A DNA stretch of 31,682 nucleotides from Gemmatimonadota bacterium (lineage in GTDB: Bacteria; Gemmatimonadota; Gemmatimonadetes; Gemmatimonadales; Gemmatimonadaceae): the NCBI GenBank assembly GCA_031372565.1, contig JANMLN010000063.1, positions 1 through 31,682 of the forward strand, read 5' to 3'. The notes under the pieces are model-generated. The model was not told the DNA's origin and searched no databases. It saw only the letters and a list, made by a program, of their open reading frames with translations. This document shows positions 953 to 28,294 of this stretch, piece by piece (the stretch's first letter is position 1; each line of letters begins with the position of its first letter). A program made the position numbers and the translations under genes.

Positions 953-2161
953 GTGAGAGAAGCGTACATTGCCGCCGGCGTGCGCACGCCGATCGGTTCG
1001 TTTGGCGGGGCGCTGGCCAACGTGCGCGCCGATGACCTGGCAGCGCACGCGATCCGCGAGCTGATCAAGCAGCACCCATCGGTTGATGCCGCCGCGATCA
1101 CTGACGTCATCCTCGGCTGCGCCAACCAGGCGGGCGAGGACAACCGCAACGTGGCGCGCATGGCGTTGCTGCTGGCGGGGCTGCCGACGTCGGTACCGGG
1201 CGAGACGGTCAACCGTCTCTGCGCTTCCGGGCTCTCGGCGACGGTCAGCGCGGCGCGCGGCATCCGCAACGGTGAAGGCGACCTGTACGTCGCGGGCGGC
1301 GTCGAGAACATGACGCGCGCGCCGTACGTCATGAGCAAGGCCGGCACGGCGTGGGCGCGCGATGCGCAACTCTACGACACGTCGCTCGGCTGGCGCTTCA
1401 TCAACAATGCGTTCAAGAACCAGTTCGGTACCGACTCGATGGGCGAGACGGCGGAGAACGTGGCCGCCGAGCGCAACGTGAGTCGCGCGGACCAGGACGC
1501 GTTCGCGCTGCGGTCGCAGCAGAAGGCGTCGGCGGCGCGCGCGGCCGGCCGCTTCGCGCGCGAGATCGTGCCGGTGGAGATCGCGGGCAAGAAGGGGCCG
1601 ACGGTCGTGAGCGATGACGAGTTCCTGCGGCCCGACACGACGCTTGAGACGCTCGCGAAGCTGAAGCCCGCGTTTCGTACCGACGGCAAGGGTACCGTGA
1701 CGGCGGGCAATGCGAGCGGATTGAACGATGGCGCGTGCGCGCTGCTCATCGCGTCTGACGCGGGGTGCAACACGCACGGACTCACGCCGATGGCGCGCCT
1801 CGTGAGCTGGGCGGCGGCTGGACTCGAGCCGCGCGTGATGGGATTGGGCCCCGTGCCCGCGACGCAGAAGGCGCTCAAGATGGCGGGGCTCACGGTCAAG
1901 GACCTCGACGTGATCGAGCTCAACGAGGCGTTCGCCGCGCAGGTGCTGGCCTCGCTCCGTGAGCTCGGCATCGCGGACGATGACCCTCGCGTGAATCGCA
2001 ACGGCGGCGCCATCGCCCTCGGCCACCCGCTCGGCATGTCGGGCGCGCGCGTGGCGCTGAGCGCCGCGCACGAGCTGCAGATCACGGGCGGTCGCTACGC
2101 GCTCGTGACGATGTGCATCGGTGTGGGGCAGGGCATGGCGGCCGTTCTCGAGCGCGTGTAG
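953..2161 (+). CDS. paaJ: 3-oxoadipyl-CoA thiolase (PaaJ/PcaF type)
   Basis: [16 protein letters not shown], catalytic NRLCASG, NEAFA, GHPLG and CIGVGQG motifs. GTG start preceded by AGGAG. Confidence 0.93.
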
Positions 2162-2236
2162 GGTGCGCGCCTGCCGCGCAGCACACGGTGAGTGACCTCA
2201 GGCAATCCTGACCGAGTACCAACGGAGAATTCATAG

Positions 2237-4333
2237 ATGCGCTTGCAGAACTATGTCCTCGGCCAGTGGGTCGAGGGAGGCGGGACCGGCACCGAGCTGG
2301 TCAGCGCCATCACGGGCGAAGCGATTGCCGTGGCGAGCACGGTTGGCATCGACTTCAAGGCCGCGCACCAGTACGCGCGCGACGTCGGCGGGCCCGCGCT
2401 CCGCGCCATGACGTTCCACGAGCGCGCCGCGCGCCTCAAGGCGATGGGCAAGTACCTGACGGAGCGGAAGGCCGAGTTCTACGACCTTTCGAACCACACC
2501 GGCGCCACGAAATCCGATTCGTGGATCGACATCGACGGCGGGATCGGCACCCTGTTCGTCTACGCCAGCAAGGGGCGGCGCGAGTTGCCGAACGAGCCCT
2601 TCTTCGTGGACGGCGGTCCCGAGGCGTTGTCCAAGGGGGGCAACTTCATCGGGCGGCATGTCTGCGTGCCGCTCGAAGGCGTTCACGTGCAGATCAACGC
2701 CTTCAACTTTCCCGTGTGGGGCATGCTCGAGAAGGTCGCGCCGAGCTTCCTCGCGGGGATGCCGAGCATCGTGAAGCCGGCGAGCCTCACGAGCTACCTC
2801 ACCGAACGCGTGGTGCACGCGATGATCGAGTCGGGGATCTTTCCCGAGGGGACGCTGCAGCTGCTGGTCGGGAGCGCGGGCGATCTGCTCGACCACCTCG
2901 ACTGTCAGGACGTGGTGGGCTTCACCGGCAGTGCGACCACGGGGCAGATGCTCAAGGCGCATCCGGCCGTCATGCGCAACAGCGTGCGCTTCAACATGGA
3001 AGCGGACTCGCTCAACTGCTGCATCCTCGGCCCTGACGCCGACCCGGGGACCGAGGAGTTCGACCTGTTCGTCAAGGAAGTTGCGCGCGAGATGACGGCG
3101 AAGGCCGGGCAGAAGTGCACGGCGATTCGACGGACGATCGTGCCCGACCGGATGGTGGAGGACGTGATGAAGGCGCTGACGAAGCGGTTGAGTGGCGTCA
3201 CGATCGGCGATCCGCGCCTCGATACGGTGCGCATGGGACCGCTCGCGGGGAGGGCGCAGGTGCAGGAAGTGGGGAAGGCCGTCGCGCGCATCCGCCAAGA
3301 GGCGGAGCTGTTCTCCGGTGGCGAGATGGATTTCAAGCTCACCGGGGCGGATCACGCCACGGGGGCGTTCTACCCGATCACGCTCATGGCCTGCAGCAAG
3401 CCGCTGACGGCTGCCACACCGCATGACGTCGAGGCGTTCGGCCCCGTGAACACCGTGATGGGCTACGCACACGTCGACGATGCGATCCAGCTGGCCCGGC
3501 GAGGCAACGGGTCGCTGTGCGGGTCACTGTTCACCGTGGATGACGCGGTCGCGCGAAAGATCGTGCTGGGCGTTGCCCCATTTCATGGCCGACTCGTCGT
3601 GGTCAACCGCCACGATGCGAAGGAGAGCACCGGGCACGGCTCCCCGATGCCGCATCTCGTGCACGGCGGTCCCGGGCGCGCGGGTGGTGGAGAGGAGATG
3701 GGCGGCATGCGCGGCGTGATGCACTTCATGCAGCGCACGGCGGTGCAGGGGTCACCGACGACCCTCACCGCCATCACGCGTGAATGGTCGGTGGGCGCCG
3801 ATCGTGCAACCGACCGCGTGCATCCGTTCCGGAAGCATTTCGAGGAACTGCGCATCGGGGAGTCGCTGACGACGCACCGCCGGACGGTGACCGAGACCGA
3901 CATCGTGAACTTCGCCGGCATCTCGGGCGACTTCTTCTATGCCCACATGGACGACATCGCCGCCAAGGCGTCGTTCTTCGAGCGACGGGTCGCCCATGGA
4001 TACTTCGTGCTCTCCGCTGCGGCGGGGCTCTTTGTCGACCCCGCGCCGGGACCGGTGCTCGCGAACTACGGGCTCGAGAACCTGCGCTTCGTGAAGCCCG
4101 TGTATGCCGGCGACACCATCCAGGTGACGCTGACCTGCAAGCAGAAGACGTTGAAGGACACGCCCGAGGGTGGCGTCCCGCAGGGGGTGGTCGCCTGGGA
4201 CGTGGAAGTCACCAACCAGAATGCGGAGCCGGTGGCGGTGTACACGATCCTGACGCTCGTCAAGCGGTTGGTCGTGCCCGACGCGATCGGTACGCACGCG
4301 ACATCAACCACCGGGGACGCCACCGGCGCGTGA
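2237..4333 (+). CDS. paaZ: Bifunctional oxepin-CoA hydrolase / aldehyde dehydrogenase (ALDH + MaoC)
   Basis: QINAFNFPVWGMLEK, MEADSLN, GQKCTAIRR, HGSPMPHLVHGGPGRAGGGEE. C-terminal MaoC domain (GDFFYAHMD, AHGYFVLSAAAGL). GGAG RBS. Confidence 0.96.
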   Translation: MRLQNYVLGQWVEGGGTGTELVSAITGEAIAVASTVGIDFKAAHQYARDVGGPALRAMTFHERAARLKAMGKYLTERKAEFYDLSNHTGATKSDSWIDIDGGIGTLFVYASKGRRELPNEPFFVDGGPEALSKGGNFIGRHVCVPLEGVHVQINAFNFPVWGMLEKVAPSFLAGMPSIVKPASLTSYLTERVVHAMIESGIFPEGTLQLLVGSAGDLLDHLDCQDVVGFTGSATTGQMLKAHPAVMRNSVRFNMEADSLNCCILGPDADPGTEEFDLFVKEVAREMTAKAGQKCTAIRRTIVPDRMVEDVMKALTKRLSGVTIGDPRLDTVRMGPLAGRAQVQEVGKAVARIRQEAELFSGGEMDFKLTGADHATGAFYPITLMACSKPLTAATPHDVEAFGPVNTVMGYAHVDDAIQLARRGNGSLCGSLFTVDDAVARKIVLGVAPFHGRLVVVNRHDAKESTGHGSPMPHLVHGGPGRAGGGEEMGGMRGVMHFMQRTAVQGSPTTLTAITREWSVGADRATDRVHPFRKHFEELRIGESLTTHRRTVTETDIVNFAGISGDFFYAHMDDIAAKASFFERRVAHGYFVLSAAAGLFVDPAPGPVLANYGLENLRFVKPVYAGDTIQVTLTCKQKTLKDTPEGGVPQGVVAWDVEVTNQNAEPVAVYTILTLVKRLVVPDAIGTHATSTTGDATGA

Positions 4334-4337
4334 GCAC

Positions 4338-5231
4338 GTGAACGCCCCCGTGCGCGACATCGCCCTGACCTTCGCCGGTGGGGGCAATCGGGCCTTCTAC
4401 CAGCTCGGGCTGCTGCGGCAGTGGGGCTCGTGGCTCCTGCCGCGCACGGTCGGCGTGGCCGCGTGCTCCGCCGGCGCGTACGTCATCTGCCTCTACCTCG
4501 CCGGGCGGGAGCAGGAGGCGTTCGACTTCTGGTATCAGGCGCGCGCGCACGTCCGTCGCAACTTCACCTTCAGCAACGCGCTCAAGGGGAAGCCGGTCGC
4601 GCCGCATGCGGCCATCTATCCCGAGACCATCCGCTTCATGCTCGCGGAGGGCGGCTTCGACAAGATCAGGGCGGCGCCATTTCCGATCCTGATTCTTGCC
4701 GCGGGCTTCCCGCGCTTCCTCTCGGGCTCGCTGGCAACCACGATCGGGCTGCTCGGCTATCAGGCCGAGAAGGCGGCCAAGCCGACCCAGATTCACCCGA
4801 GATGGGGACGTGCGTTGGGGTTCCGGCCTGTCGTGGCTGACGCGCGCGAGTGCCAGGACGTCGAGGAGTTGACGGCGCTCATCCTCGCTTCGGGCTCCAC
4901 GCCCCCCGTGACGCCGCTCGGCCGCTTCCGGGGGGAGGACCTGCTCGACGGCGGACTGGTGGACAACGTGCCGGCGTTCGTGGCCGACGAAATCCCCGGC
5001 GCGAGGCGCAACCTGGTGCTGCTCACGCGGGCGTACACCGGCCGAGGCGCGCAGCTGGAGGACGGCAGGCGCCTGTATATCGCGCCGAGTCAGCCGGTCC
5101 CGATCCATCGGTGGGACTACACCCGCCCGGACCTGCTCGAAGCCACGATCGCGATGGGGGAGCGGGAGGCGGTCAGCCTGCATGGGCCGATGGTGGAGCG
5201 TTTCCTGTCCGCGCCCCATATTGGGGCATGA
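4338..5231 (+). CDS. Patatin-like phospholipase/esterase family protein
   Basis: Gly-rich AGGGNRAFY, nucleophile elbow ACSAG, ASGSTP and catalytic DGG (LLDGGLVDNVP). Confidence 0.88.
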   Translation: MNAPVRDIALTFAGGGNRAFYQLGLLRQWGSWLLPRTVGVAACSAGAYVICLYLAGREQEAFDFWYQARAHVRRNFTFSNALKGKPVAPHAAIYPETIRFMLAEGGFDKIRAAPFPILILAAGFPRFLSGSLATTIGLLGYQAEKAAKPTQIHPRWGRALGFRPVVADARECQDVEELTALILASGSTPPVTPLGRFRGEDLLDGGLVDNVPAFVADEIPGARRNLVLLTRAYTGRGAQLEDGRRLYIAPSQPVPIHRWDYTRPDLLEATIAMGEREAVSLHGPMVERFLSAPHIGA

Positions 5232-5982
5232 GCCAACACGACCTCAGCAAGAAAGTCGCCCTCGTCACCGGGGCCACACGCGGCATCGGTCTCGCCATCG
5301 CCAAGGGGCTCGCCGCCGCGGGCGCGACCGTTGTGATCTCGAGTCGCAAGGCGGATGCGGTCAACGCGGCCGTGGCCGAGATCACCGCCGCCGGCCACGC
5401 GGCGGTCGGTCTTCCAGCCAACGTCGGCAAGCTCGACGAGGCGCGCCAACTGGTCGACGATACCATCGCCCAGCTGGGCGGTGTGGACATCGTCGTCAAC
5501 AATGCGGCCACCAATCCGGTGTACGGCCCGGTCGAGAATACCGACGAGGGCGCGTGGAACAAGATCATGATGGTGAACGTGCAGGGGCCCTTCGAGATCG
5601 CCAAGCGTGCGCTGCCCAGCATGACGGCCCGCGGCGGCGGTGCCGTGCTCAACATCTCGAGTGTCGAGGGGCTGACCCCCGGACACGGGTTGGGCGTCTA
5701 CTCCGTGAGCAAGAGTGCGCTCATCGCCCTCACGAGCGTGATGGCGCGCGAATGGGGCCCCAAGGGGGTGCGCGCCAACGTGATCTGTCCGGGATTGATC
5801 AAGACGGATTTTTCCGAGGCGCTCTGGCAGGACGAGAAGTTGATGTCGCGGTTCCTGAAGGCGCAGCCCATTGCCCGCATCGGCGAGCCGGATGAAGTCG
5901 CCGGCCTCGCCGTCTTCCTGTGTTCCCCAGCCGCGAGCTTCATCACCGGCGGGACTTATGTCGTGGATGGAGGGTACAGCAT

Positions 5983-5986
<4 letters not shown>
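5228..5986 (+). CDS. Short-chain dehydrogenase/reductase (DHRS4/LvaD-like)
   Basis: TGATRGIG, VISSRK, NNAATNP, YSVSK (YxxxK), PGLIKTDFS. The ATG at 5228 overlaps the patatin stop, so the longer ORF call from 4850 is over-extended. Confidence 0.92.
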
Positions 5987-7227
<1,241 letters not shown>

Positions 7228-12021: not shown

Positions 12022-13104
12022 ATGCGCTACATGCTGGTCTCGCTCGTCGCCGCCGCCTGCGTAGCCTGCCTGGCGGGTGCTCAGGGCACCGCCGCATCGG
12101 CGCCTCGTCCGCTCAAGGTCATGCTGCTCTATGACATGGAGGGGGTGAGCGGCATTCACGAATGGCGCATGACATCGGCGCGACATCCGGAGCAGTATGC
12201 CGAGGGGCGGCGGTCGTTGACGGCCGACGTGAACGCCGCGATTGCGGGCCTGAAGGCCGCAGGGGTGAGTGACATTCTCGTGGTGGACGGGCACGGGTCG
12301 GGCAACACCGACGGTCCTGATGTCCTCGAGGATCAGCTGCTCGCGCCCGCACGGATGGCCAATCGCGATGCGCCGTTCGACACCTACATGGACAGCTACG
12401 ATCACTCGGTCGATGCCATCGTGGCCATCGGCATGCATGCCGGGGCGGGGAACCGCGTTGGGTTTCTCTCGCACACGTACACGTTCGAGGATATCGAGTA
12501 CCGCGTCAACGGGACGCCGTTCAACGAGTCGATGCTGCTGGCGGCGGGGGCGGCGCGACTCCGCATTCCGGTCATCATGGTGAGTGGTGACGACCAGTTG
12601 GAGCGTGAACTGAAGCGGATGATGCCATGGGTACGCTACGCCATGACCAAGCGGGCGGTGGATCGGAGCCGCGCGGAACCGCTGGCACGCGAGGAGGCGA
12701 GCCGGCGCATCGAGGCCGCGGCGCGCGAGGCCGTCCTCAAGCTCTCCGATGCCCGGATTCCGGAGTGGGGTGGACCGTACCGGTTCCAACTCACCTTTCA
12801 GGATGAGTTGCAGGCGCGCAACGCGAGTTACGTGCGCGGGGCCGAACTGGGGTGGTTCCCCACGATGGTCCAGTTCGCGGCCACCGACTTCGAAGAGGGC
12901 TACCGGCGGTCGTTGCTGCTGATTCGCATGGCCGGCCCCGTGTCCGCCGCCGATGCGGCCAATGCGGTGATCGAGCGGCAGCCGAACGGCAAGGCACTCG
13001 CGGTCGAGACGGTGGACTGGGCGTTCGAGCGCTTCCTGACCGGTCCCACGCCTCCGGCTGCGGTCGGCGCGAGTCCGAAGCGACGCTACTGGGGCGCGCG
13101 GTAG
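12022..13104 (+). CDS. M55 family (DppA-like) D-aminopeptidase with N-terminal signal peptide
   Basis: YDMEGVSGI, VDGHG, GMHAGAG, LSHT, NES and VSGDD match DppA metal-site motifs. GGGAG RBS before the ATG at 12022. Hydrophobic leader MRYMLVSLVAAACVACLAGAQ. Confidence 0.9.
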   Translation: MRYMLVSLVAAACVACLAGAQGTAASAPRPLKVMLLYDMEGVSGIHEWRMTSARHPEQYAEGRRSLTADVNAAIAGLKAAGVSDILVVDGHGSGNTDGPDVLEDQLLAPARMANRDAPFDTYMDSYDHSVDAIVAIGMHAGAGNRVGFLSHTYTFEDIEYRVNGTPFNESMLLAAGAARLRIPVIMVSGDDQLERELKRMMPWVRYAMTKRAVDRSRAEPLAREEASRRIEAAAREAVLKLSDARIPEWGGPYRFQLTFQDELQARNASYVRGAELGWFPTMVQFAATDFEEGYRRSLLLIRMAGPVSAADAANAVIERQPNGKALAVETVDWAFERFLTGPTPPAAVGASPKRRYWGAR

Positions 13105-13118
13105 GCGCGCCCGCGGCG

Positions 13119-13982
13119 TCAGGGCGTGACCCGCTCTAGCGCCATGCGCCGCGTGAGGTCTCGCAACGCGCCGATCCGCTGGATCGTGTACGGAATCGTG
13201 TCGAGCCCGGTCGTGAACTTCTGGATGTACTGGTAGATGCCGATGATCGAGCCGGCCTGCAGGTTCTCGCTCGAGATGTCGGTCGTCGCCAGCAGCGAGA
13301 CCGTGACGACGACGAGGGCGAGCAGCTCCATGGCGCCGAAATTCCACGCCTCCAGGTCGGAGACCCGCACCTGCCACTGGCGCAGCTCCGCATAGTGCGC
13401 CCGGATCCGCCCCATGTCACTCGAGGAGATGATGTCGACCTGGCGCTCGAGTTCGTCGTTGGTCCCCTGCGCGAGCCGGGCGGTGCGGCGCCCGTACAGG
13501 TAGCTCAGCCGGGAGACCGGCACGAGGATGAGCAGGCAGATCAGCACCACGGTCCGATCGTAGAACAGGAGCAGCACCAGCGACCCGACGATGTTGTACA
13601 TCGCTTCGACCACGTAGTTCGCGTCGAATTCCAGGAAGTCGATGAACTGCCGAGCCAGCTGCGAGTGGGCCGAGAGGCGCGAGACATCCTCGCGGCCAAT
13701 CTCCCGGTCGAGGAGCTTGGTGACGAAATCCGTGTAGATGGCCGTGAAGGTGCGCGTGTCGTACAGATGGCGCAGCGTGCCGACCACCAGATAGCTCGCG
13801 TGGACCACCACCAGCTCGATCAGGCCGGCGTAGTGTCCGTCGAGCAGGCCGTCCACGGCCCGACCGAGAAAGAGGGGACGCAGCAGCGTCCCCAGCATCT
13901 CGAGGCCGAAGAGCGTGTACGTGATGACCAGACGGCCGCGATGTTGGGCGAACACCCGCTGGAGCGGGGTGAAGTCGCTCAA
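13119..13982 (-). CDS. Stand-alone ABC-type six-transmembrane domain protein (ABC_membrane_3-like, no NBD)
   Basis: About 6 hydrophobic segments, PLFLGRAVDGLL, YDTRTFTAIY, RQFIDFLE, NDELERQVDII. No Walker motifs. TTG start 4 nt after the upstream stop. Confidence 0.8.
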   Translation of the reverse strand: MSDFTPLQRVFAQHRGRLVITYTLFGLEMLGTLLRPLFLGRAVDGLLDGHYAGLIELVVVHASYLVVGTLRHLYDTRTFTAIYTDFVTKLLDREIGREDVSRLSAHSQLARQFIDFLEFDANYVVEAMYNIVGSLVLLLFYDRTVVLICLLILVPVSRLSYLYGRRTARLAQGTNDELERQVDIISSSDMGRIRAHYAELRQWQVRVSDLEAWNFGAMELLALVVVTVSLLATTDISSENLQAGSIIGIYQYIQKFTTGLDTIPYTIQRIGALRDLTRRMALERVTP

Positions 13983-13986
13983 CCGT

Positions 13987-15438
13987 TCACCGCGGCCAGC
14001 TTTCCCGCACCATGCGGCGTGCCCGCTCGCGCAGGGTGACCGAGTTGTTTGCCGTGCCGCTCACCATGCCCCGGCAGGTGGGCGCGCCGCAGTTGCAGCG
14101 GAACGAGGCGCTGGTCTCGCTCAGGAAGTCCGCGAAGTCCAGGGTCAGCTCGACGCCCTTGGGGATATCGCGGCGAGCGGCCACGTCGAGTCCCACAAAG
14201 ACGGTGTTGGGGTCGCAGGAGTGGTTCTGCGGCGCCCACTCGGACGGATTCGCGTCCCAGAGCACGAACACTTCGTCCGACAACGGATAGGCGTAGTGCT
14301 TGAAGCTCTCCAGCTCGTCGGCGGTCCAGCTGCCCTCGACGTGCGACTTGGTCACGACCCGCTGTGCTTTCTCCTCGCCATGGAAGACGATCTCGCCCGC
14401 CCGGATGTCGCGCGTGGCGTAGATGCCGTAGCCGGCGATGTCGCTCCCCTGAATCGCGAACGGACGGGTCTTGCGGTGGTGGCGGGCGATGGCTTCGGTC
14501 ACCACCAATTCGCCAAACCCCTGCTGACCGATGCCGTCGTGCTTGAGGATGTAATCCGCCGAGCCCTCGAGCCCGTCGGCGTAGAAGAGTGAACAGGAGA
14601 AGTTCACTTCCAGGAAGAACAGCTCCCCCTGCTCGTTGAGCCGGAAGTCCATGCGGGCGTATCCGACGGCGCTGAAGCCGTTGTACACCGCGGTCGCCGC
14701 CCGTTTGAGCCGCTCGGCGAGTTCAGGATCGCGCACCGGCACGTTGGCCTCGGGGTGCAGCTCCGAGGTCTTGTGCGCGTAGGTCTTGAACTGGGGGCCT
14801 TCCTCGAAGACAAACTCGACCGGCGTGAAGGCGCGCACCTTGCCGTGCGCCTGCGGATCGGCAATCACGAGCACGGTCAGCTCGCGGCCGTCGATGTACT
14901 CCTCGACGAGCAGTTCCGGGTAGTCGGGGAGGGTTGCGGCCACCTTGGCGTCGAGCTCCGCCTTGGTGCGGCACAACGACTGGGTATCGATCCCCAGCGA
15001 ATCACCCGCGTGCGCCGGCTTGACGAAGAGCGGGAAGGTGAGCCGGTTCGCGGCACGCTCGGCGTCCGCCATCGACGCCACCAGCACGTGGGCGGCGGTG
15101 CGCACCCCCGACACGTGCGCGATGTACTTCATCAGGACCTTCTTCGGGTGGTACAGCTCGGCCGTGGGGCCGGTGTACGGGAGCCCGAGCAGGTCCAGCG
15201 AGTGGATGACATCGATCGAGGGGATGTCCCACTCGAGGTAGCCGTCCACCAGGTTCACGTAGAGGTCGAATCCCTGCTTCGACAGGTCACGCAGCTGCCG
15301 ATAGGTGCTGAGCTTGTTGAGCGCGACATGATGCACCTCATGGCCGACGAAGACGCGGCCGAGGTCACGCGGGGGATCGTAGTTCTTGTAGTCGACCGAA
15401 GAGGCGGAGTAGTCGGACTGGAGAACGCAGAGCTTCAT
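13987..15438 (-). CDS. D-Ala-D-Ala ligase-like ATP-grasp protein fused to C-terminal SET and post-SET domains
   Basis: ATP-grasp: LPYTG, FPLFVKP, GDSLGI, VEEYIDGRELTV, GYARMDFR, LEVN. SET: AGYGIYATRDIRAGE, NHSCDPN, RRDIPKGVELTLDF, post-SET CNCGAPTCRG. The ATG at 15438 overlaps the upstream stop (ATGA). Confidence 0.92.
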   Translation of the reverse strand: MKLCVLQSDYSASSVDYKNYDPPRDLGRVFVGHEVHHVALNKLSTYRQLRDLSKQGFDLYVNLVDGYLEWDIPSIDVIHSLDLLGLPYTGPTAELYHPKKVLMKYIAHVSGVRTAAHVLVASMADAERAANRLTFPLFVKPAHAGDSLGIDTQSLCRTKAELDAKVAATLPDYPELLVEEYIDGRELTVLVIADPQAHGKVRAFTPVEFVFEEGPQFKTYAHKTSELHPEANVPVRDPELAERLKRAATAVYNGFSAVGYARMDFRLNEQGELFFLEVNFSCSLFYADGLEGSADYILKHDGIGQQGFGELVVTEAIARHHRKTRPFAIQGSDIAGYGIYATRDIRAGEIVFHGEEKAQRVVTKSHVEGSWTADELESFKHYAYPLSDEVFVLWDANPSEWAPQNHSCDPNTVFVGLDVAARRDIPKGVELTLDFADFLSETSASFRCNCGAPTCRGMVSGTANNSVTLRERARRMVRESWPR

Positions 15439-16580
15439 GAGGCCAAGGTCGGGGCGGCGATCGGTCGGCGCAGGCAGACCTCGATGATGTCCTTCACGAT
15501 GGCATGGTACGGCGTGCTGGCGAACCGCAGGATGGCGCCGATCGAGGTGTAGTTCTCGTCCTCGGAGAGGCCGCACTGGGCGTTCACCTCGAGCACGTAC
15601 AGCTCTCCGGTCTTCGCGTCCATGCGCAGGTCAACCCGGCCATAGCCGGTGCCGCCGACCGCCTGATAGGCCGCCCAGCTCACGTCGCACACCTTGGCGC
15701 TGAGCGTCTCGGGAACCGCCGCGTACTCCCACAAGTTCTGGCCGCCCGGTACGGGGGCCTCGTCGGCGTGGAACTCCCAGAGCCGGTCGAACGACAGGAA
15801 CTGCTCGGTGGACGGCAGCGTCGGGTTGAAGACGCGCTCGACGGGCGGGAAGACGATTCCGTTGTCCGACGAGTGTCCGTTGCCTATGATGAACGTGGTG
15901 AACTCGCGCCCGGCGATGTAGCGCTCGACGAACAGCCCGCCTTCGACCAACGACCAGCCGTTGACCCCGGCGCGCATCTCGGTGAGCCGCGCATTGAGCT
16001 GCGCCCTCGTGGACACGACGTTCTTGCAGCCGATGCCGAGACTGCCGGCCGACACCGCCGGCTTGAGGATCAGCGGGCCTGGAATGCGCTTGAAGATGCC
16101 GTTGACCGCCTTCGTGGTCGGCGGGATGACCTCCCACGGCGCGGTTGGCACTCCCGCCCGGTTGAAGGCTTCCTTCATCACGATCTTCGACGTGGTGATG
16201 TCGTAGAAGTGCTCGTTGGCGCCCGTGTAGGGCAGGCCGACCTGCTCGAGGTGCCGGATGACGGAGAGGCCCGGCGAGCCGTTGAGCTCGTCCCCATCAC
16301 AGAGATTGAAGACGACGGGCCGGAACCCGGCCGACTGCGCGGGAATCTCGTCGATCACGCTCCGGAACGAGCGCATCGTGACGAGCGACCAGCGGAACTC
16401 GATCCCGAGTTCGCCGAAGGCACGCGCGAACTCCGCGTGGCCCTGGCTGAAATCATTGTAGTACTGGATCGTGGGGTCGTCGGTCTCGATGTAGGGGACC
16501 AAGACCCAGACGAGGAGTGGCGCCAAGGGCGCGTCTCGACTCGTGCGTCGTGCAGCGGAACCATTGCGGGCTCTCGTCAT
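15435..16580 (-). CDS. D-Ala-D-Ala ligase-like ATP-grasp protein
   Basis: FNLCDG, LPYTGA, SKIVMK, GVPTAPW, LILKP, AGSLGI, FVERYIAGREFT, GYGRVDLR, LEVNAQCGL. The exact start may lie slightly downstream. Confidence 0.9.
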   Translation of the reverse strand: MTRARNGSAARRTSRDAPLAPLLVWVLVPYIETDDPTIQYYNDFSQGHAEFARAFGELGIEFRWSLVTMRSFRSVIDEIPAQSAGFRPVVFNLCDGDELNGSPGLSVIRHLEQVGLPYTGANEHFYDITTSKIVMKEAFNRAGVPTAPWEVIPPTTKAVNGIFKRIPGPLILKPAVSAGSLGIGCKNVVSTRAQLNARLTEMRAGVNGWSLVEGGLFVERYIAGREFTTFIIGNGHSSDNGIVFPPVERVFNPTLPSTEQFLSFDRLWEFHADEAPVPGGQNLWEYAAVPETLSAKVCDVSWAAYQAVGGTGYGRVDLRMDAKTGELYVLEVNAQCGLSEDENYTSIGAILRFASTPYHAIVKDIIEVCLRRPIAAPTLAS

Positions 16581-16583
16581 GCA

Positions 16584-16603
16584 CCAATCCGCGCGCGGAT
16601 TGG
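16584..16603. promoter_or_regulatory. Perfect 20-bp palindrome, candidate operator or 5' hairpin
   Basis: CCAATCCGCGCGCGGATTGG is its own reverse complement. It sits between the putative -10 box and the start codon at 16580. Confidence 0.6.
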
Positions 16604-16609
16604 CGACTG

Positions 16610-16638
16610 ATTGAAGCGCCCCCCGGATGGAGCGTCAA
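16610..16638 (-). promoter_or_regulatory. Putative sigma70-type promoter of the ATP-grasp/SET operon
   Basis: Minus strand TTGACG (16638-16633), 17-nt spacer, TTCAAT (16615-16610), with an AT-rich tract upstream. Confidence 0.5.
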
Positions 16639-16800
16639 TGCGCATCGTGCAATCCTACAACTATTGGTCGGGATTGCAATAGTTGCTAACAAATACGAAT
16701 GCACGAATCATCGATGACAGATCGCGTGGCGTACGATGGATCGACCTCGATGCGTCGATCTCGCATCACGCGCCGTGTGCGCGGTGCGAGTCGCGGCCCG

Positions 16801-17277
16801 TCACCGCGCGCCGAGCAATGCCGGATTGCGTCGCCAGACGCTGGCTGCAAGTGCGGTCGCGATGGACACCCACGCGAGGTACGGCACGAACAGGATCCCG
16901 GCCGATGGGTGCAGTCGCCAGAAGGCCACCATCGTGCTCGCCACGCCCAGCCAGAGCATGGCCGCCTCGTAGGTCGACCAACGACCGCTGTGTCGGACAA
17001 AGAAGAGGTAGGACCAGAGCGCATTCAGCCCGAGCTGCACCACGTAGAGCGTGAGCGCGAGGCGCGCGCCGGAGAAGCCGAAGTCACGCCAGATCGTCCA
17101 CGCGGCCGTCGCCATGAGGCAGTACAGCACGCTCCATGCCGGGCCGAACGCCCACGCGGGAGGCGCCCATCGGGGCTTGTCGAGCTGGGCGTAGAAGGCG
17201 GCCGCCGTACGCGCCGTCACCGCGCCAGAGATGGCGGCGAGGAAGGTGAAGGCGAGCCAACCAGCCAATCCGGTCAT
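16801..17277 (-). CDS. tspO: TspO/MBR family tryptophan-rich sensory protein
   Basis: FYAQLDKPRWAPPAWAFGPAWSVLY, QLGLNALWSYLFF, LFVPYLAWV. Strong AAGGAGG RBS. Confidence 0.95.
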   Translation of the reverse strand: MTGLAGWLAFTFLAAISGAVTARTAAAFYAQLDKPRWAPPAWAFGPAWSVLYCLMATAAWTIWRDFGFSGARLALTLYVVQLGLNALWSYLFFVRHSGRWSTYEAAMLWLGVASTMVAFWRLHPSAGILFVPYLAWVSIATALAASVWRRNPALLGAR

Positions 17278-17315: not shown

Positions 17316-18506
17316 CTATCCGTGAACCAACGCAACGACCGGGTTCATCTGTACGGTTCCACCAAAGGCCGTCGTTTCGTTGACTCGGAACATCACGGGC
17401 GGCGCCGACGCCACGTCCTTGTTCGTCAACACCTCCTGTGCCGCCACCTCCACCAGGTAGTTCCCCGGTGGCAGGTTGGCTTGCAGCGTCAGGTCCACCG
17501 CAAAGGGCCCTCGATCACGCAGCTGCACGCCGAGCCCCGAGGCCCCACTCATGAACAGCACGCCCCCCGTCCGCAAGGAGCGGACGCGGATGTACAGCGG
17601 CTCGATCCGATTGCTCAACGGCTCGCGCACTTCCCCCTCGATGCGCACACCAAAGGTCGCACCGGACACCACGGGCGCCTCGTCGTGCAGGTGCACGCGC
17701 GTGTAGCGCACGGGGCCATGGTCGTGCGCTGCCACCTCGACCCGCTGCTGCTGCACATACGTCGAGATCGCGTCCGCCGCCTCACCCTGCGCCACCACTT
17801 CGCCCTGCTTGAGCACGAGCACGTGCGAGCAGAGCTCCGCCACGCGATCGAGCTGATGCGAGACCATGATCACGGGGATCCCGCTCTGCGTCATCTCCCG
17901 AATGCGGCCGAAGGCGCGCGTCTGGAACGAGAGGTCGCCCACCGCCAACACCTCGTCGATCACGAGCACATCCGGCTCCAGATGTGCCGCGATCGAGAAG
18001 CCCAGCCGCGCGTTCATGCCGCTCGAGTAGCGCTTGACCGGGGTGTCGATGAACTCCGAGATCCCCGAGAACTCCACGATCTGGTCGAACTTGCGCTCCA
18101 CTTCCTTGGTGCGCATTCCCATGATCGCCCCCTGCAGGAAGACGTTCTCCCGACCGGACAGGTCGCCATGGAAGCCCGCCGAGACCTCGATCAGCGTGCC
18201 GACGCGCCCGCTGATCAGCGTCCGTCCCCGCGTTGGCGCGTAGATGCGCGTCAGCAACTTGAGCGCGGTCGACTTGCCCGACCCGTTCGGTCCGATGATA
18301 CCCATGCACTGCCCAGGCACCACCTCGAACGACAGGTCGCGCACGGCCCAGAAATCGCCCGTCCGCAGCACATCGGCCGGCGGGCCACGGCCGATCATGC
18401 TCGCCATCGTCGCCGGAATGAGATCGCGCAGGCTGTCGTGCACCCGGCCCCGACCGAACTTCTTCCACACGCGGTCGAAGACCATGCGTCCGTGCACGCT
18501 GCTCAT
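17316..18506 (-). CDS. wzt: Polysaccharide ABC transporter ATP-binding protein with C-terminal Wzt_C-like domain
   Basis: FWAVRDLSFEV, GPNGSGKST, DTPVKRYSSGMNARLGF, IDEVLAVGD, VSH, plus a beta-rich C-terminal extension. Confidence 0.92.
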   Translation of the reverse strand: MSSVHGRMVFDRVWKKFGRGRVHDSLRDLIPATMASMIGRGPPADVLRTGDFWAVRDLSFEVVPGQCMGIIGPNGSGKSTALKLLTRIYAPTRGRTLISGRVGTLIEVSAGFHGDLSGRENVFLQGAIMGMRTKEVERKFDQIVEFSGISEFIDTPVKRYSSGMNARLGFSIAAHLEPDVLVIDEVLAVGDLSFQTRAFGRIREMTQSGIPVIMVSHQLDRVAELCSHVLVLKQGEVVAQGEAADAISTYVQQQRVEVAAHDHGPVRYTRVHLHDEAPVVSGATFGVRIEGEVREPLSNRIEPLYIRVRSLRTGGVLFMSGASGLGVQLRDRGPFAVDLTLQANLPPGNYLVEVAAQEVLTNKDVASAPPVMFRVNETTAFGGTVQMNPVVALVHG

Positions 18507-18516
18507 GCCGTCGCCC

Positions 18517-19467
18517 TCATCCGAACTCGGCGAATCGCTGCTCGGCCCGGTGGAAGATCAGCGCGCTGATCGCCAGAAAGCCGAACGATGCCGCCGCGCT
18601 GTACGCCAGCAACCATGGTGTCCAGAAGGCGAAGCCCTGGGGGGCGGCGAGCGGGGTGAGCAGGTTGTGGCCGTTGACGATCGACAGGCGCAATCCTTCG
18701 AGGATCGGGGCGACAGGATTGAGCATGAGCAGTCGGCACCCCAACCGTCCGAACTGCGGGGCATCCAGCAACACCGGCGTGGCGAAGATGCCGAAGGTGA
18801 GGAAGACCTGCACGATGTACTTCACATCGCGAAAGAACAGGTTCGCGCAGCTCAGGATCAGGGCCATCGCGAGCGCGAAGACCCAGAGCAACCCCAGCAG
18901 CAGAGGCACCCACAGCAAGGCCCAACTGAGGTGCACGCCGAGAAAGGGCAGCACCAGCGTCACCAACACGAGGCCGATCGAGGAATCGAAGCTCTGCGCC
19001 AGGACGGCGGCCAGCGGGAGGGTTTCGCGCGGAAAGTAGATCTTGGTCACCAACGACATGTTGGCTACGAGACTCGGCGTGCCCATCGTCAGGCAGCCCG
19101 AGAAAAAGGCCCACGGCACCGACTTGACCGTCATGCCGGCGACCTGGTCGAGATTCAGCGACCTGCCCGCCGCATGGGCAAGCGCCAAGCGCAGGGTGAG
19201 CCCGGCCAGGATGATGCTGACCGGGACGAGGAGCGCCCAGGCGAATCCGAACGCCGCCTGCTTGTAGCGCACGGTGATGTCCCGGCGCACGAGCTGCCGC
19301 AGCAGGTCACCGACCCCCAACATGTCGGAGACGATCTCGCGGAAGTCACCCACGACGGTCCGCGTCGGCTCCGGCGGAAGCTCCCGAACCACAGGAGCGC
19401 TCGTGCGACCCGCAGTGGTGGGAACCGACTCAGAAGCGGAGGTGGCGGACACGGCGGCGGTCTTCAC
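18517..19467 (-). CDS. wzm: Polysaccharide ABC-2 transporter permease
   Basis: LVRRDITVRYKQAAFGFAWALL, LVTKIYFPRE, FFRDVKYIV, LNPVAPILEGLR, FHRAEQRFAE. Start position uncertain. Confidence 0.92.
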   Translation of the reverse strand: MKTAAVSATSASESVPTTAGRTSAPVVRELPPEPTRTVVGDFREIVSDMLGVGDLLRQLVRRDITVRYKQAAFGFAWALLVPVSIILAGLTLRLALAHAAGRSLNLDQVAGMTVKSVPWAFFSGCLTMGTPSLVANMSLVTKIYFPRETLPLAAVLAQSFDSSIGLVLVTLVLPFLGVHLSWALLWVPLLLGLLWVFALAMALILSCANLFFRDVKYIVQVFLTFGIFATPVLLDAPQFGRLGCRLLMLNPVAPILEGLRLSIVNGHNLLTPLAAPQGFAFWTPWLLAYSAAASFGFLAISALIFHRAEQRFAEFG

Positions 19468-19752: not shown

Positions 19753-21354
19753 ATGACGCCTTGGCACCAGCGTTACGACCCGCTCGACTCGGCCCTCGCG
19801 TCCACGCTGCTGGCGGCGCTGCCGCTGGTCGTGCTCCTCGGGCTGCTCGCGTCGCACAAGGTGCGGGCCCCCGTCGCGGCGTTGGTCGCGGCCGCCACGG
19901 CTGGCCTGGTTGCTGCCCTCGTGTTCGGCATGCCGGTCCGACTCGTGGTGGCCAGCGCCGCCTTCGGTGCGGCATACGGCCTGTTTCCCATCGGGTGGAT
20001 CGTCCTCAACGTGATCTTCCTGTACCGGTTGACGCTCGAGCGCGGGCACTTCGACCTGGTGCGCCAGAGCATTGCCGGCATCACGGATGACAAGCGCCTG
20101 CAGCTGTTGCTCATTGCCTTCGCTTTCGGCGCGTTCTTCGAGGGGGCCGCTGGCTTCGGGACGCCGGTGGCGGTCACCGCCGCGCTGTTGCTCGGCCTTG
20201 GCTTTTCGCCGCTTGAGGCATCGGGTCTCTCGCTGATTGCCAACACGGCGCCGGTGGCCTTCGGCGCGCTCGGCACCCCCATCATCGCGCTGCAAGGCGC
20301 GACCGGGCTTGAACTCCGCGACCTCTCGGCCATGGTGGGTCGGCAGCTGCCGTTCTTCTCGGTGATCATCCCGTTCTGGCTCGTTGCGGCCTATGCGGGA
20401 CGGCGTGGTGTGCGCGAGGTGTGGCCAGCGCTCGTCGTCGCGGGCCTGAGCTTCGCCGTTCCGCAGTGGGCCATGGCCACCTTTCACGGACCGTGGCTGG
20501 TGGACGTGGTCGCGGCGGTGTGCTGCATCGGCTGCACGGTCGCCTTTCTCCGCGTGTGGCAGCCGCCGCGCGCCGGCGCGTTGCCTGATCGCCCGAGTGG
20601 CGCAGCGCGAACACCACGCGCCCCCGGCACCATGCGCGCGTGGCTTCCGTGGGGACTGCTCTCGCTGGTCGTCTTTCTGTGGGGATTGCCGCAGGTCAAG
20701 GGCGCGCTCAACGCGGTGAGCGCGCCACGCATCGCGGTGCCGTACCTCGACGGCGCGGTGCTGCGCATGCCGCCGGTCGTCGCCGCCGCCACGGCGGAAC
20801 CGGCGATCTTCGCGTTCAACTGGCTCACCGCCACGGGGAGTGCCATCCTGATCGCAGCGCTGCTCTCAGCCCCGCTGCTCGGTGTCGGGGCACGCGACGT
20901 TGGCCGCATCTACCTCGGGACCCTGCGGGACGTGCGCGCCTCGCTCGTGACCATCGCCGCCATGCTGGCCATCGGATACCTCACCCGCTTTTCCGGCATG
21001 GACAGTGTGCTCGGGCTCGCCTTTGCCGCCGCAGGGCCCGCATATCCATTCTTCGGAACGCTGCTCGGCTGGCTGGGGGTCGCCATCACCGGATCGGATA
21101 CCGCCTCCAACGTGCTCTTCGGTAACCTGCAGGTGGTCACGGCGCGGCAGGTGGGTGTCGATCCCGTCCTCATGGCCGCCGCCAACTCGAGTGGTGGCGT
21201 GATGGGCAAGATGATCGACGCGCAGAGCATCGTTGTCGCGAGGACCGCGACGGGCTGGTCCGGGTCGGAGGGAACGATCCTGCGCTTCGTCTTCTGGCAC
21301 AGCCTCGCGCTCGCGGTTCTGGTGGGCCTCTTCGTTACCGTGCAGTCGCTCTGA
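19753..21354 (+). CDS. L-lactate/glycolate permease (LctP family)
   Basis: WHQRYDP, FPIGWIVLNVIFLY, DKRLQLLLIAFAFGAFFEGAAGFGTP, GSDTASNVLFGNLQ, GGVMGKMI. ATG at 19753. Confidence 0.95.
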   Translation: MTPWHQRYDPLDSALASTLLAALPLVVLLGLLASHKVRAPVAALVAAATAGLVAALVFGMPVRLVVASAAFGAAYGLFPIGWIVLNVIFLYRLTLERGHFDLVRQSIAGITDDKRLQLLLIAFAFGAFFEGAAGFGTPVAVTAALLLGLGFSPLEASGLSLIANTAPVAFGALGTPIIALQGATGLELRDLSAMVGRQLPFFSVIIPFWLVAAYAGRRGVREVWPALVVAGLSFAVPQWAMATFHGPWLVDVVAAVCCIGCTVAFLRVWQPPRAGALPDRPSGAARTPRAPGTMRAWLPWGLLSLVVFLWGLPQVKGALNAVSAPRIAVPYLDGAVLRMPPVVAAATAEPAIFAFNWLTATGSAILIAALLSAPLLGVGARDVGRIYLGTLRDVRASLVTIAAMLAIGYLTRFSGMDSVLGLAFAAAGPAYPFFGTLLGWLGVAITGSDTASNVLFGNLQVVTARQVGVDPVLMAAANSSGGVMGKMIDAQSIVVARTATGWSGSEGTILRFVFWHSLALAVLVGLFVTVQSL

Positions 21355-24628: not shown

Positions 24629-25798
24629 CTACGCTGCCTCGAAGATCCCCGCCGCACCCATCCCGCCGCCAATGCACATCGTCACCATCCCGTAGCCGCC
24701 ACCGCTGCGGCCGAGCTGATGCACGAGCTGCGTGGTGAGCTTCGCGCCGGTCGCGCCCAACGGGTGACCCAACGCGATCGCACCGCCGTTCAGGTTCACG
24801 CGGCTCATGTCCATCTCGAGCGTGCGTGCCACGGCCAGCGCCTGCGCCGCGAACGCCTCGTTGAACTCGATCACCTTGATGTCGTTCAACGCGAGACCGG
24901 CACGCTTGAGCGCCTTCGGTACCGCCTTGATCGGCCCCACACCCATGATGTCCGGGTCGACGCCTGCCACGGCGAACGTCACGAACCGCGCCAGGGGGGT
25001 GAGGCCCAGCGCCTGTGCGCGCTCGCCGCTCATGACCAGCACCGCAGCCGCACCATCGGAAAAGGGCGATGCATTGCCGGCCGTGACGGTGCCCTTGACC
25101 TTGAACGCAGGCGGCAACTTGGCGAGGCGTTCCACACTTGAGTCGGCGCGCACCAGCTCGTCGGTGCTGAAGGCGCCCTTCTTCACGACCTTCCTGGTGC
25201 CTTCCCACGTCACCGACTCGACCTCGATCGGCACCAGTTCCGGCGTGAAGACGCCGCTGGCGAGTGCTGCGGCCGCCTTGCGATGCGAGTCCACCGAGAA
25301 CGCATCCGCGTCCTCGCGCGAGATCTTCCACCGCTCGGCGACGTTCTCCGCCGTGAACCCCATGCCGATGTAGGTCTCGGTCAGCTCGGGGTGCAACCGC
25401 GGATGATAGCCGGTCATCGGCACGAGACTCATCATCTCGCACCCGCCGGCCAGCACCACGTCGGCCGTGTTCGCGATGATCGCCTGCGCGGCCATCGCCA
25501 CGGTCTGCAGACCGCTCGAGCAGAACCGGTTGACCGTCGCCGCCGGCACATCGGTCGGAAAGCCGGCGCGAAGCACGGCGGTCCGGGCAAAGTTGAGTCC
25601 CTGCCCACCCTCGGGGTTCGCGCACCCCCACAGCACGTCATCCAGTTCGGCGGTGTCGAGCCCGACACGCTCGACCGCCGCCTTCATCACGGCCGCCGAC
25701 AGGTCCGTCGGCGTGACGTTGGCCAACGAGCCGTCCTTCTTGCCGCGGCCCACGGCGGAGCGCACGGCGCTCACGATCACTGCTTCACGCATGCTCAT
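24629..25798 (-). CDS. fadA: Acetyl-CoA C-acyltransferase (3-ketoacyl-CoA thiolase)
   Basis: [39 protein letters not shown]. Directly downstream of the fadN-like gene. Confidence 0.9.
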
Positions 25799-25800
25799 GG

Positions 25801-28119: not shown

Positions 28120-28294
28120 CTGCGGGACCCTGCTTGAAGTTGAGGGTTCAACGTTGGCGACGGCCTCAGGCCCGGTGTAGGCGCTCGGCCTGATTTCCGC
28201 CAACGGAGGGGAATGTCGCGAGCGGGGACGAGACGCGCAAACCGTCACACGCGACGCCTTGTCCGCTCGCGCGCAGCCGTTTCGATTCCACCCC

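Follow-up and report, generated by a model that had tools for sequence, protein, structure and literature searches.

What might be made by two enzymes resembling D-alanine–D-alanine ligase (Ddl), a SET methyltransferase and an ABC-type membrane domain without an ATPase, when all of them are encoded together in a bacterium? This question is raised by a locus within 31,682 nucleotides of Gemmatimonadota DNA (contig JANMLN010000063.1, assembly GCA_031372565.1). The whole stretch is here referred to as the window. A sequence-only reading had proposed three packed minus-strand genes for two Ddl-like ATP-grasp enzymes, the second fused to a SET/post-SET domain, and a lone six-helix ABC-type domain. 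ORFs and translations bore out the coordinates of the genes, and Pfam the domain calls. Our tentative answer, which we regard as nearly balanced but leaning towards doubt, is a cytoplasmic pathway in which amino-acid-type units are ligated, a side chain is methylated and the product leaves through an exporter of the module itself.

For the second gene the longest ORF extends to 15576 (GTG start). The start was nevertheless set at the ATG at 15438, since all 15 aligned homologues begin there, and AG1 and AG2-SET consequently share an ATGA overlap at 15435-15438. A gap of 4 nt (13983-13986) separates AG2-SET from the gene of the membrane domain (TMD). With its TTG start the TMD agrees in length and N-terminus with the NCBI-annotated homologue P0126.

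Table 1. Features of the locus, numbered from the first nucleotide of the window
Feature	Position	Strand	Remarks
AG1, Ddl-like ATP-grasp ligase	15435..16580	-	381 aa; paralogous to AG2; Pfam Dala_Dala_lig_C 8e-14
AG2-SET fusion gene	13987-15438	-	483 aa; ATP-grasp + SET/post-SET
AG2, Ddl-like ATP-grasp domain of the fusion protein	14464..15438	-	residues 1-325; Pfam Dala_Dala_lig_C 9.9e-22
SET + post-SET methyltransferase domain of the fusion protein	13987..14463 (stop codon included)	-	residues 326-483; Pfam SET 1.3e-9
TMD, lone six-helix membrane domain resembling type-IV ABC exporters, no NBD	13119..13982	-	287 aa, TTG start; Pfam ABC_membrane_3 1.6e-41
Operon 5' leader, conserved	16577..16680	-	possible promoter and two hairpins; confidence below that of the genes
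Leader promoter candidate	TTGCAA 16679-16674, TAGGAT 16657-16652	-	below promoter-scan threshold
Leader hairpin 1	16612-16638	-	alignment and RNAalifold
Leader hairpin 2	16577-16610	-	AG1 start codon pairs within the hairpin

AG1 and AG2 share 32% identity across 275 residues. The Pfam match of AG1 reached 52.1 bits (cut-off 24), and that of AG2 covered residues 126-279. The positions K173, R315, D317, E331 and N333 of AG1 were invariant in an alignment of 17 homologues, and so were K140, R262, D264, E277 and N279 of AG2 among 16. Judged from these alignments, both ligases retain the ATP/Mg-binding residues. Ddl/Van enzymes were the closest matches of both in sequence and structure; for the AF2 model of AG2 (mean pLDDT 78.3) the top PDB folds were all Ddl (E 1e-19, target-normalised TM-score 0.70-0.78).

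Against the curated Ddl models TIGR01205 (cut-off 245.65) and NF002378 (cut-off 243), AG1 scored 81.1 and 67.4 bits and AG2-SET 86.8 and 96 bits, respectively. Both ligases fall short of every curated Ddl cut-off, so we do not regard them as peptidoglycan Ddl. The name 'D-alanine--D-alanine ligase' given to such proteins in databases is probably misleading. No NCBIfam model attained its cut-off with AG1 or AG2-SET. The omega-loop motifs (FKTYAxKTSELHP in AG2, LPxxExFLSFDRLWE in AG1) are unlike those of Ddl, as is the C-terminal substrate region. As a weak hint, a distant ATP-grasp relative is located among diamino-acid biosynthesis genes; another adjoins CapA on pNGR234a. In 72,556 plasmid records there were no full-length fusions and only 6 partial ATP-grasp matches.

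SET domains are customarily taken for protein methyltransferases that act on chromatin or on host targets. The fused SET domain scored 38.8 bits in Pfam (cut-off 22.4, residues 336-435). Its motifs GYGI, NHSCDPN and ELTLD(F/Y) and the post-SET motif CxCGxxxCRG were invariant or almost so among 16 homologues, with G336/G338, N405-H406-x-C408, E430-L-T432 and C448/C450/C455 strictly invariant. The post-SET cysteine cluster is thus complete (C408 of NHSC with C448, C450 and C455), and the residue after the conserved aspartate is Phe in 6/16 sequences, the window included, and Tyr in 10/16. By this alignment the domain retains its SAM-binding and post-SET motifs. In profile searches it matched KMT2A SET domains at 5.8e-12 (residues 332-457) and BurB at 1.2e-11, the latter only over the C-terminal part of the fused domain. 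Its tail, NS(V/L)TxRE, was considered as a TMD-docking element and dropped, being alike in loci with and without the TMD.

Related loci mostly carry a further, stand-alone small SET protein. Its gene was found in 64/72 loci, upstream of AG1 in 62/72; in the window a tblastn search with this protein matched the fused SET domain only. The small protein has no NCBIfam matches. Its top solved relative is BurB (2.3e-10, runner-up 1e-3). The methylation substrate of BurB is free methionine, and the accessible part of its description presents it as a novel type of SET protein because a free amino acid is methylated (PMC12542666). The database name 'protein-lysine N-methyltransferase' is probably misleading as well.

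Confirmed relatives of the module occur in at least 590 species genomes, mostly of Chitinophagaceae and Gemmatimonadota, and the bacteria concerned, hundreds in number, come from soil and freshwater. The locus analysis covered the best-scoring 80 of these, essentially from two phyla. AG1 preceded AG2-SET, with both on one strand, in all 76 assessable loci, within 350 nt in 75. The TMD was present in 46/72 loci, adjacent and on the same strand in 45, and this linkage was seen in both main clades of the AG2-SET tree, the Gemmatimonadota-type (12 rows) and the Bacteroidota clade (67 rows). The gene-neighbourhood check thus supports the expectation that the genes are conserved together, some even being fused. 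Since the TMD was missing from the flanks in 26/72 loci and at least seven independent linkage changes were found, export coupling in cis is not obligatory.

All 120 AG2-SET homologues among the matches listed kept the SET fusion. Additionally, P0028 combines AG1, AG2 and SET in the order of the genes, P0249 and P0256 are AG2-SET-SET fusions, and P0285 joins an AG-SET unit to an additional ATP-grasp domain. The natural fusions AG1-AG2-SET and AG2-SET-SET argue that the enzymes belong to one pathway. Across the 80 loci no precursor, racemase or amino-acid-supply gene was a conserved neighbour, and mur/fts genes were not conserved. The sequence-only reading had foreseen that similar fusions may exist in databases, and relatives of the module indeed number in the thousands. 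Its description of the architecture as minimal needs amending. Most relatives have a fourth gene, that of the stand-alone BurB-like SET protein, and about a third of the loci can do without the TMD in cis.

The TMD matched ABC_membrane_3 (PF13748) with 142.7 bits (cut-off 27) and was also just over the Pfam cut-off for ABC_membrane (29.5 against 28); an ABC_tran domain was absent from the protein according to Pfam, and there were no NCBIfam matches. Its AF2 model (pLDDT 81.5) consists of six long helices. The top folds were the membrane domains of TAP2, EfrCD and TmrAB (query-normalised TM-score up to 0.80) as well as BmrA (E 1.5e-7), and the matches take in lipid and peptide exporters, MsbA among them. 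All 120 homologues among the matches listed were 278-350 aa long. A search for longer homologues gave two proteins, both without ABC ATPase, ATP-grasp or SET Pfam domains. Likewise, no ATPase was present among the 14 recurrent neighbour clusters scanned, and the nearest ABC_tran gene in the window (17316-18506) is partnered with an ABC-2 permease.

In 3/3 neighbourhoods, distant PF13748 homologues were lone genes facing away from a divergently transcribed regulator of the TetR/AcrR or MerR type, and neither an ATPase nor an ATP-grasp gene lay within 6 kb; this context comes from 3 of 113 records, of relatives that are 27-34% identical. Such a regulator-paired layout of a lone gene is typical of stand-alone efflux pumps and suggests that the TMD may be an autonomous efflux permease. 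A functional study of PF13748 or ABC_membrane_3 was not found in the accessible literature.

The leader upstream of AG1 was almost invariant in four Gemmatimonadota loci, with the alignment lost farther upstream. RNAalifold predicted 30 pairs, three of them with compensatory double changes. Neither the leader nor the rest of the window matched an Rfam family. A covariance model of the leader recovered its four source sequences, and the remaining 77 loci gave no credible match; three weak extra matches look like noise.

The statement that no mur, fts or van genes are nearby held for the 47 ORFs of at least 200 aa scanned across the window. A gene for a Peptidase_M55 D-aminopeptidase ends at 13104, convergent with the TMD gene and 14 nt from its stop. 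Further neighbours include MsbA-like and Wzm/Wzt-like exporters and TspO. All of these were rejected as members of the module, as they are conserved only in L001-L003, the three closest relatives. The PADLOC anti-phage models gave no families for the four proteins searched.

In the pathway that we tentatively favour, AG1 and AG2 would act jointly as paralogous Ddl-type ligases with intact catalytic motifs, probably as a Ddl-like heterodimer. Each would convert a carboxylate via an acyl-phosphate into an amide bond, joining amino-acid-type units to a compound resembling a di- or tripeptide. In the fusion protein the SET domain would carry out a SAM-dependent methylation of a linear side-chain nucleophile, on a substrate or on the product; an amine of the Lys/Orn type and a thioether of the Met type are the candidates for this nucleophile. 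The BurB-like enzyme would add an extra methylation in most of the other lineages. The NBD-less TMD would serve as an autonomous efflux permease, with the resulting product, probably cationic, as its cargo.

We infer the substrates and the order of the steps. A small-molecule product is favoured because the ligases are related to Ddl/Van enzymes, which use free amino acids, because the small SET protein is closest to BurB with its free methionine substrate, and because of the distant ATP-grasp relative among diamino-acid genes. The direction and energisation of transport are likewise part of the model, in which the TMD is read as an exporter because its fold fits type-IV ABC exporters and its distant relatives have the layout of efflux pumps. 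A more specific version we consider somewhat unlikely: the SET enzymes here would act on metabolites and not on proteins, and a widespread pathway would build a di- or tripeptide, possibly containing D- or diamino acids, that methylation leaves permanently charged as a quaternary ammonium or sulfonium compound. It would be secreted via PF13748, an ABC-exporter membrane domain that would have lost its ATPase and work as a secondary transporter.

Against the pathway reading stands that the best full-domain solved relatives of the fused SET domain are protein lysine methyltransferases, with likeness in sequence to the SET domains of KMT2A and ASH1L, and that the BurB match is confined to the C-terminal part. 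Further counterpoints are the loci lacking the TMD and the absence of a conserved precursor, racemase or amino-acid-supply gene beside the module. The lysine methyltransferase likeness speaks for an alternative that we consider unlikely, in which proteins would receive amino acids at the C-terminus or on side chains from the ligases, in the manner of RimK or tubulin-tyrosine ligase, SET would methylate lysines of the same target and the TMD would be the target or a membrane anchor. The eukaryotic TTLL12 likewise joins SET-like and ATP-grasp (TTL) domains, according to the accessible part of its description (PMC3520985), but with reversed domain order and, as far as the accessible text of another source goes, as a pseudo-enzyme (PMC10889654). 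By alignment and model, those polar motifs that are strictly invariant in the TMD map to cytoplasmic loops, which would suit protein-protein contact. On the other hand, Ddl/Van models fit both ligases far better than RimK (for AG1 81 against 20.5 bits), and no conserved candidate substrate gene was found beside the module in the 80 loci. Tagging would also agree with an identity of approximately 57-60% between phyla and with the housekeeping neighbours SSB, MnmG and YbeY in Chitinophagaceae, but the latter reflect synteny inside one family.

A modification of the envelope, in which an amine-bearing lipid or precursor is aminoacylated and methylated at the inner leaflet and flipped outward by an MsbA-like TMD, would follow the logic of MprF, which is both synthase and flippase. 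The lipid and peptide exporters among the fold matches, the translational coupling of the TMD gene to the SET gene across the 4-nt gap and the exporter genes in the window agree with it. We nevertheless judge it quite improbable: only the three closest relatives keep the exporter neighbours, the model shows no membrane-binding segment in the enzymes, over a third of the loci lack the TMD in cis and its distant relatives resemble drug-type efflux genes. Two paralogous ligase active sites could also alternate in extending a polymer similar to cyanophycin or poly-gamma-glutamate, which would be methylated and extruded via the TMD. We hold such a non-ribosomal poly-amino-acid synthetase to be very improbable, as the triple fusion matches cyanophycin synthetase models with 51.8 bits against a cut-off of 850, as a Mur-ligase-type domain, primer-binding and polymerase-like features are all absent and as the TMD fold is of the small-substrate exporter type; besides the paired active sites, the cyanophycin synthetase matches, weak as they are, and the relative beside CapA are the points in its favour. 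Ordinary peptidoglycan D-Ala-D-Ala ligases with incidental SET and TMD are scarcely credible, even with Ddl as top matches in sequence and fold and a D-aminopeptidase gene adjoining in the window. The sequence-only reading would have given way to this explanation, against which several points stand: 81 to 96 bits lie far under the cut-offs of 243 and 245.65, the omega-loop and substrate region differ, the SET fusion is kept in every listed homologue and mur/fts genes are absent nearby.

We found no description of the module in curated families, defence models, Rfam or the accessible literature, and none of a bacterial fusion of ATP-grasp and SET domains in the latter. That at least 590 species genomes encode a SET domain joined to an amino-acid ligase, mostly with a BurB-like SET gene alongside, points to a sizeable unexplored role of SET enzymes in bacterial metabolism, and the context of the TMD suggests that membrane domains of ABC exporters can function without an ATPase. 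If a charged methylated peptide is indeed secreted, Chitinophagaceae and Gemmatimonadota would gain a metabolite class that is new; PF13748 would obtain its first function and the eukaryotic pairing of SET and ATP-grasp in TTLL12 a bacterial counterpart. With three or four genes the module is compact and should be easy to express.

With Ddl and VanA/B/C/G the two ligases share the three-domain ATP-grasp fold and the Lys, Arg-x-Asp and Glu-x-Asn residues of the ATP/Mg site. They differ in being a divergent paralogue pair, one SET-fused, with scores of about a third of the family cut-offs, distinct omega-loop motifs and no cell-wall gene context. BacD/YwfE and MysD are ATP-grasp (pseudo)peptide ligases of secondary metabolism, which join unusual amino acids and are encoded in small operons with tailoring enzymes and an exporter. 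To our knowledge, none of these dipeptide or pseudopeptide ligases has a fused SET domain, a paralogous partner ligase or a PF13748 protein.

The six-helix membrane domains of type-IV (ABCB-type) exporters such as TAP, TmrAB, EfrCD, BmrA and MsbA superpose on the TMD model, whereas the TMD has no fused or adjacent NBD and forms a separate family. SbmA/BacA-type proteins are ABC-related membrane domains that import peptides, using the proton gradient in place of an ATPase. They presumably belong to a Pfam family and fold class other than that of the TMD, and they were absent from its listed fold matches (ranks 1-50 with gaps).

TTLL12 is the sole protein type that we found described, in sources accessible in part, as pairing SET-type and ATP-grasp domains in one chain. 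It is a weak look-alike of the fusion (score 0.80), likened by features and description, and its ATP-grasp domain is of the TTL and not the Ddl type. For the bur pathway, the accessible part of its description lists a decarboxylase, an aminotransferase and a dehydrogenase and names neither an ATP-grasp ligase nor a membrane protein (PMC12542666), and the identity of BurB to the SET domains of the module is low. Even so, the BurB/MSMT enzymes, methionine S-methyltransferases of DMSP synthesis (PDB 9l4t), are bacterial SET proteins acting on a free amino acid, and they are the nearest solved relatives of the stand-alone protein of approximately 170-180 aa that accompanies the ligases in most related loci.

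ORF calling recovered three minus-strand ORFs between 13119 and 16580, where a sequence-only reading had placed a candidate ligase/methyltransferase/transporter operon. They encode a Ddl-like ATP-grasp ligase (AG1), a paralogous ATP-grasp ligase fused to a SET/post-SET domain (AG2-SET) and an ABC-type membrane protein without an ATPase (TMD), together referred to here as the module. The longest possible ORF of AG2-SET begins with a GTG at 15576. Since the methionine encoded at 15438 was the start in 15 of 15 aligned homologues, AG2-SET was set to 483 aa, and the ATGA overlap with the stop codon of AG1 that had been proposed was borne out. The four-base gap was found as well, TMD starting with a TTG four bases past the AG2-SET stop; an NCBI-annotated homologue had the same length and N-terminus.

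The domain assignments of that reading also held in Pfam scans. AG1 matched Dala_Dala_lig_C (8e-14), AG2-SET matched Dala_Dala_lig_C (9.9e-22) and SET (1.3e-9), and TMD matched ABC_membrane_3 (PF13748, 1.6e-41) with no ATPase domain. AG1 and AG2 are paralogues sharing 32% identity, and in homologue alignments both retained the Lys, Arg-x-Asp and Glu-x-Asn which we take to form the ATP/Mg site, as in Ddl. The AF2 model of AG2-SET (pLDDT 78.3, pTM 0.71) had Ddl structures exclusively as its best fold matches. The SET domain of the fusion was complete; its GYGI, NHSCDPN, ELTLD(F/Y) and post-SET CxCGxxxC motifs showed little or no variation across 16 homologues.

Relatives of AG2-SET were numerous: 3493 at E<=1e-3 among 8000 candidates scored, 217 at E<=1e-30 when representatives at 50% identity were searched exhaustively, and at least 599 matching stretches, at least 590 of them confirmed, in one-genome-per-species contigs. 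All 120 relatives listed carried both Pfam domains (identity 54-100%). Linkage was counted in the best 80 of the at least 590 loci, mostly from Chitinophagaceae and Gemmatimonadota. The genes were conserved together: all 76 loci with sufficient flanking sequence had AG1 upstream of AG2-SET in the same orientation, at a distance of at most 350 nt in 75 of these. TMD could be assessed in 72 loci; 46 had the gene, and in 45 of the 46 it was a same-strand neighbour. In locus L011, AG1 and AG2-SET were separated by two inserted ORFs, one of them a LytTR response-regulator gene. Towards the end of the short L006 contig both strands carried TMD-like sequence (3859-5373 (+) and 4450-5223 (-)), possibly because of an assembly artefact or an inverted duplication.

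In a quick maximum-likelihood phylogeny of AG2-SET (79 rows; L040 and L049 dropped), 12 rows formed a Gemmatimonadota-type clade and 67 rows a Bacteroidota clade, both with an SH-aLRT of 99. TMD linkage was seen in both clades and changed 13 times, well-supported branches requiring at least seven of these changes; TMD therefore looks like an ancient partner, frequently lost in cis. Natural fusion proteins link the enzymes to one another: the 831 aa protein P0028 comprises AG1, AG2 and SET in gene order, P0249 and P0256 have an AG2-SET-SET architecture, and in P0285 AG-SET is joined to an additional ATP-grasp. Among 72,556 plasmid records no full-length AG2-SET copy was found. Two further proteins were also seen, the giant P0344 (6220 aa) with an AG-SET-like region at its C-terminus (residues 5677-6131), and P0258 (1415 aa) with several SET stretches and a SAF domain.

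Clustering of all ORFs in the loci revealed a fourth component, a protein of ~169 aa with SET as its sole domain (Pfam SET 8.6e-7), here named small SET. Of 72 loci, 62 had its gene immediately before AG1, 2 had it at another place and 8 had none; the window and its closest relatives belong to the last group. NCBIfam has no model for small SET or TMD. Residue 435 of AG2-SET (window ~14134-14136), following the Asp of ELTLD, was Phe in the window and five others and Tyr in 10 of the 16 aligned proteins. A Phe/Tyr switch is associated with methylation multiplicity in SET enzymes, and by analogy this exchange could alter it; the correlation of Phe with a missing small SET gene was imperfect.

The four closest Gemmatimonadota loci were nearly identical over approximately 100 nt preceding the AG1 start codon, and the sequence further upstream was unalignable. 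Two hairpins were found in this leader, the second of which pairs with the AG1 start codon and carried three compensatory double changes and a G-U change across the four loci. Rfam gave no match to the leader, and a covariance model did not find it in the other 77 loci. The leader may be a riboswitch-like element or a lineage-specific translational control element, for which four close relatives are a small sample. A weak match of the model within the lactate permease gene (20685-20768 (+), 24.7 bits, E 0.004 by rough calibration) is probably due to chance.

The window had a G+C content of ~67% and its closest relatives were Gemmatimonadota MAGs. Neighbours of the module were the M55, TspO and Wzm/Wzt-like genes tabulated below, an MsbA-like full ABC half-transporter, the lactate permease and many fatty-acid-oxidation genes. 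The neighbours were rejected as system members, as they recurred in no loci beyond the closest three (L001-L003); the TspO gene and the Wzm/Wzt-like pair, conserved only in L001 and L003, are probably separate units. Beta-oxidation-type genes, unrelated to the module, were abundant at 953-7227 and 24629-28437 (two thiolases, acyl-CoA dehydrogenase, 3-hydroxyacyl-CoA dehydrogenase/enoyl-CoA hydratase, an aldehyde dehydrogenase-MaoC fusion and an SDR). Gemmatimonadota-type loci repeatedly had peptidase or amidohydrolase genes next to the module. D-stereospecific peptide hydrolases are known from several of the families concerned; the link is a lead and not evidence.

Coordinates of the module genes, the leader and genes in the window and in related loci (L numbers)
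Feature	Locus	Position	Strand	Remark
AG1	window	15435-16580	(-)	381 aa
TMD	window	13119-13982	(-)	
Conserved 5' leader of AG1	window	16577-16680	(-)	two hairpins
Leader equivalent	L001	5759-5865		
Leader equivalent	L003	5759-5865		
Leader equivalent	L002	2067-2173		
Small SET	L027	1697-2206		example locus; directly upstream of AG1
M55 D-aminopeptidase	window	~12100-13104	(+)	convergent with TMD; ends 14 nt from TMD stop
TspO	window	16801-17277	(-)	upstream of module, same strand
Wzm/Wzt-like ABC-2 exporter pair	window	17316-19467	(-)	upstream of module, same strand
M19 dipeptidase	L005	4340-5776		same strand, directly upstream of module
M3 peptidase	L006	1-1145		beside module
S15 peptidase	L007	4704-6725		beside module
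S15 peptidase	L015	39-2000		beside module
Beta-lactamase-fold protein and Amidohydro_3	L058	5836-8339		beside module
Distant PF13748 gene	L081	5923-6822		Cronobacter plasmid
Distant PF13748 gene	L082	5959-6840		Priestia plasmid
Distant PF13748 gene	L083	5950-6843		Pantoea plasmid

The AF2 model of TMD (pLDDT 81.5) comprised six long helices. It superposed on the membrane domains of the type-IV ABC exporters TAP2, EfrCD and TmrAB (TM-score normalised to the query up to 0.80) and BmrA (E 1.5e-7). Invariant polar motifs (SRLSAHSxLAR..DFLEFD, SDxEAWNFG, GLDTIP) mapped to the cytoplasmic loops and the end of TM6. In ABC exporters the ATPase docks at the corresponding loop region. TMD belongs to a stand-alone family: the 120 homologues listed were 278-350 aa in length, and in two longer ones no ABC ATPase, ATP-grasp or SET Pfam domain was seen, which is weak evidence. 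Distant PF13748 homologues (identity 27-34%) occurred on 113 plasmid records. In all three of the plasmid neighbourhoods inspected, the gene stood by itself, facing away from a regulator gene of the TetR/AcrR or MerR type, and no gene for an ATPase or an ATP-grasp enzyme lay within 6 kb, a layout which looks like that of a classic autonomous efflux pump.

Tentatively, we read the module as a small-molecule pathway of ligation, methylation and autonomous export. AG1 and AG2, probably as a Ddl-like heterodimer, would couple amino-acid-type units; the fused SET domain would methylate an amine or thioether on a linear side chain of a substrate or of the product, in other loci together with the second, BurB-like SET; and TMD would export the product unaided. 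The resemblance of both ligases to enzymes joining free amino acids is a clue in this direction. The best solved relative of small SET was BurB (2.3e-10; next match 1e-3), described as a SET enzyme for S-methylation of free methionine in DMSP synthesis (PMC12542666). SET chemistry on free amino acids therefore has a precedent. A remotely related ATP-grasp gene on a plasmid of Thioflavicoccus lay among diaminobutyrate, diaminopropionate and lysine-aminomutase genes, which is only a lead.

By sequence, the fused SET domain lies at a similar distance from KMT2A-type protein methyltransferases, over the full domain, and from BurB, over the C-terminal part only. Protein tagging in the manner of RimK/TTL, combined with lysine methylation, is an unlikely alternative to the small-molecule pathway. 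Modification of the envelope or of lipid head groups, with TMD as a flippase, appears less probable still, and poly-amino-acid synthesis is highly improbable. A true Ddl would agree with the fold matches of AG2-SET; however, the best Ddl models reached 81-96 bits against cut-offs of 243-246, by which a peptidoglycan Ddl, named beforehand as an outcome that would refute the proposal, was ruled out, and as the sequence-only reading had noted, no mur, fts or van genes were present among the 47 window ORFs of at least 200 aa scanned with Pfam and NCBIfam, leaving this explanation a negligible probability. PADLOC defence models gave no match to the module.

Full-text literature searches returned no description of the bacterial AG2-SET fusion or of PF13748 function, and a prior in-silico mention is possible. 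The module is real, widespread, mis-annotated and open to experiment. The sole described protein with SET and ATP-grasp that we found was the eukaryotic TTLL12, whose domain order is opposite to that of AG2-SET and which is reported as a pseudo-enzyme (PMC10889654). Lacking the ATPase, the module falls outside the definition of an ABC transporter. Its parts come from known superfamilies (ATP-grasp/Ddl-like, SET, type-IV ABC exporter membrane domain), and as an operon of ligase, tailoring enzyme and exporter it is a variation on a known type.
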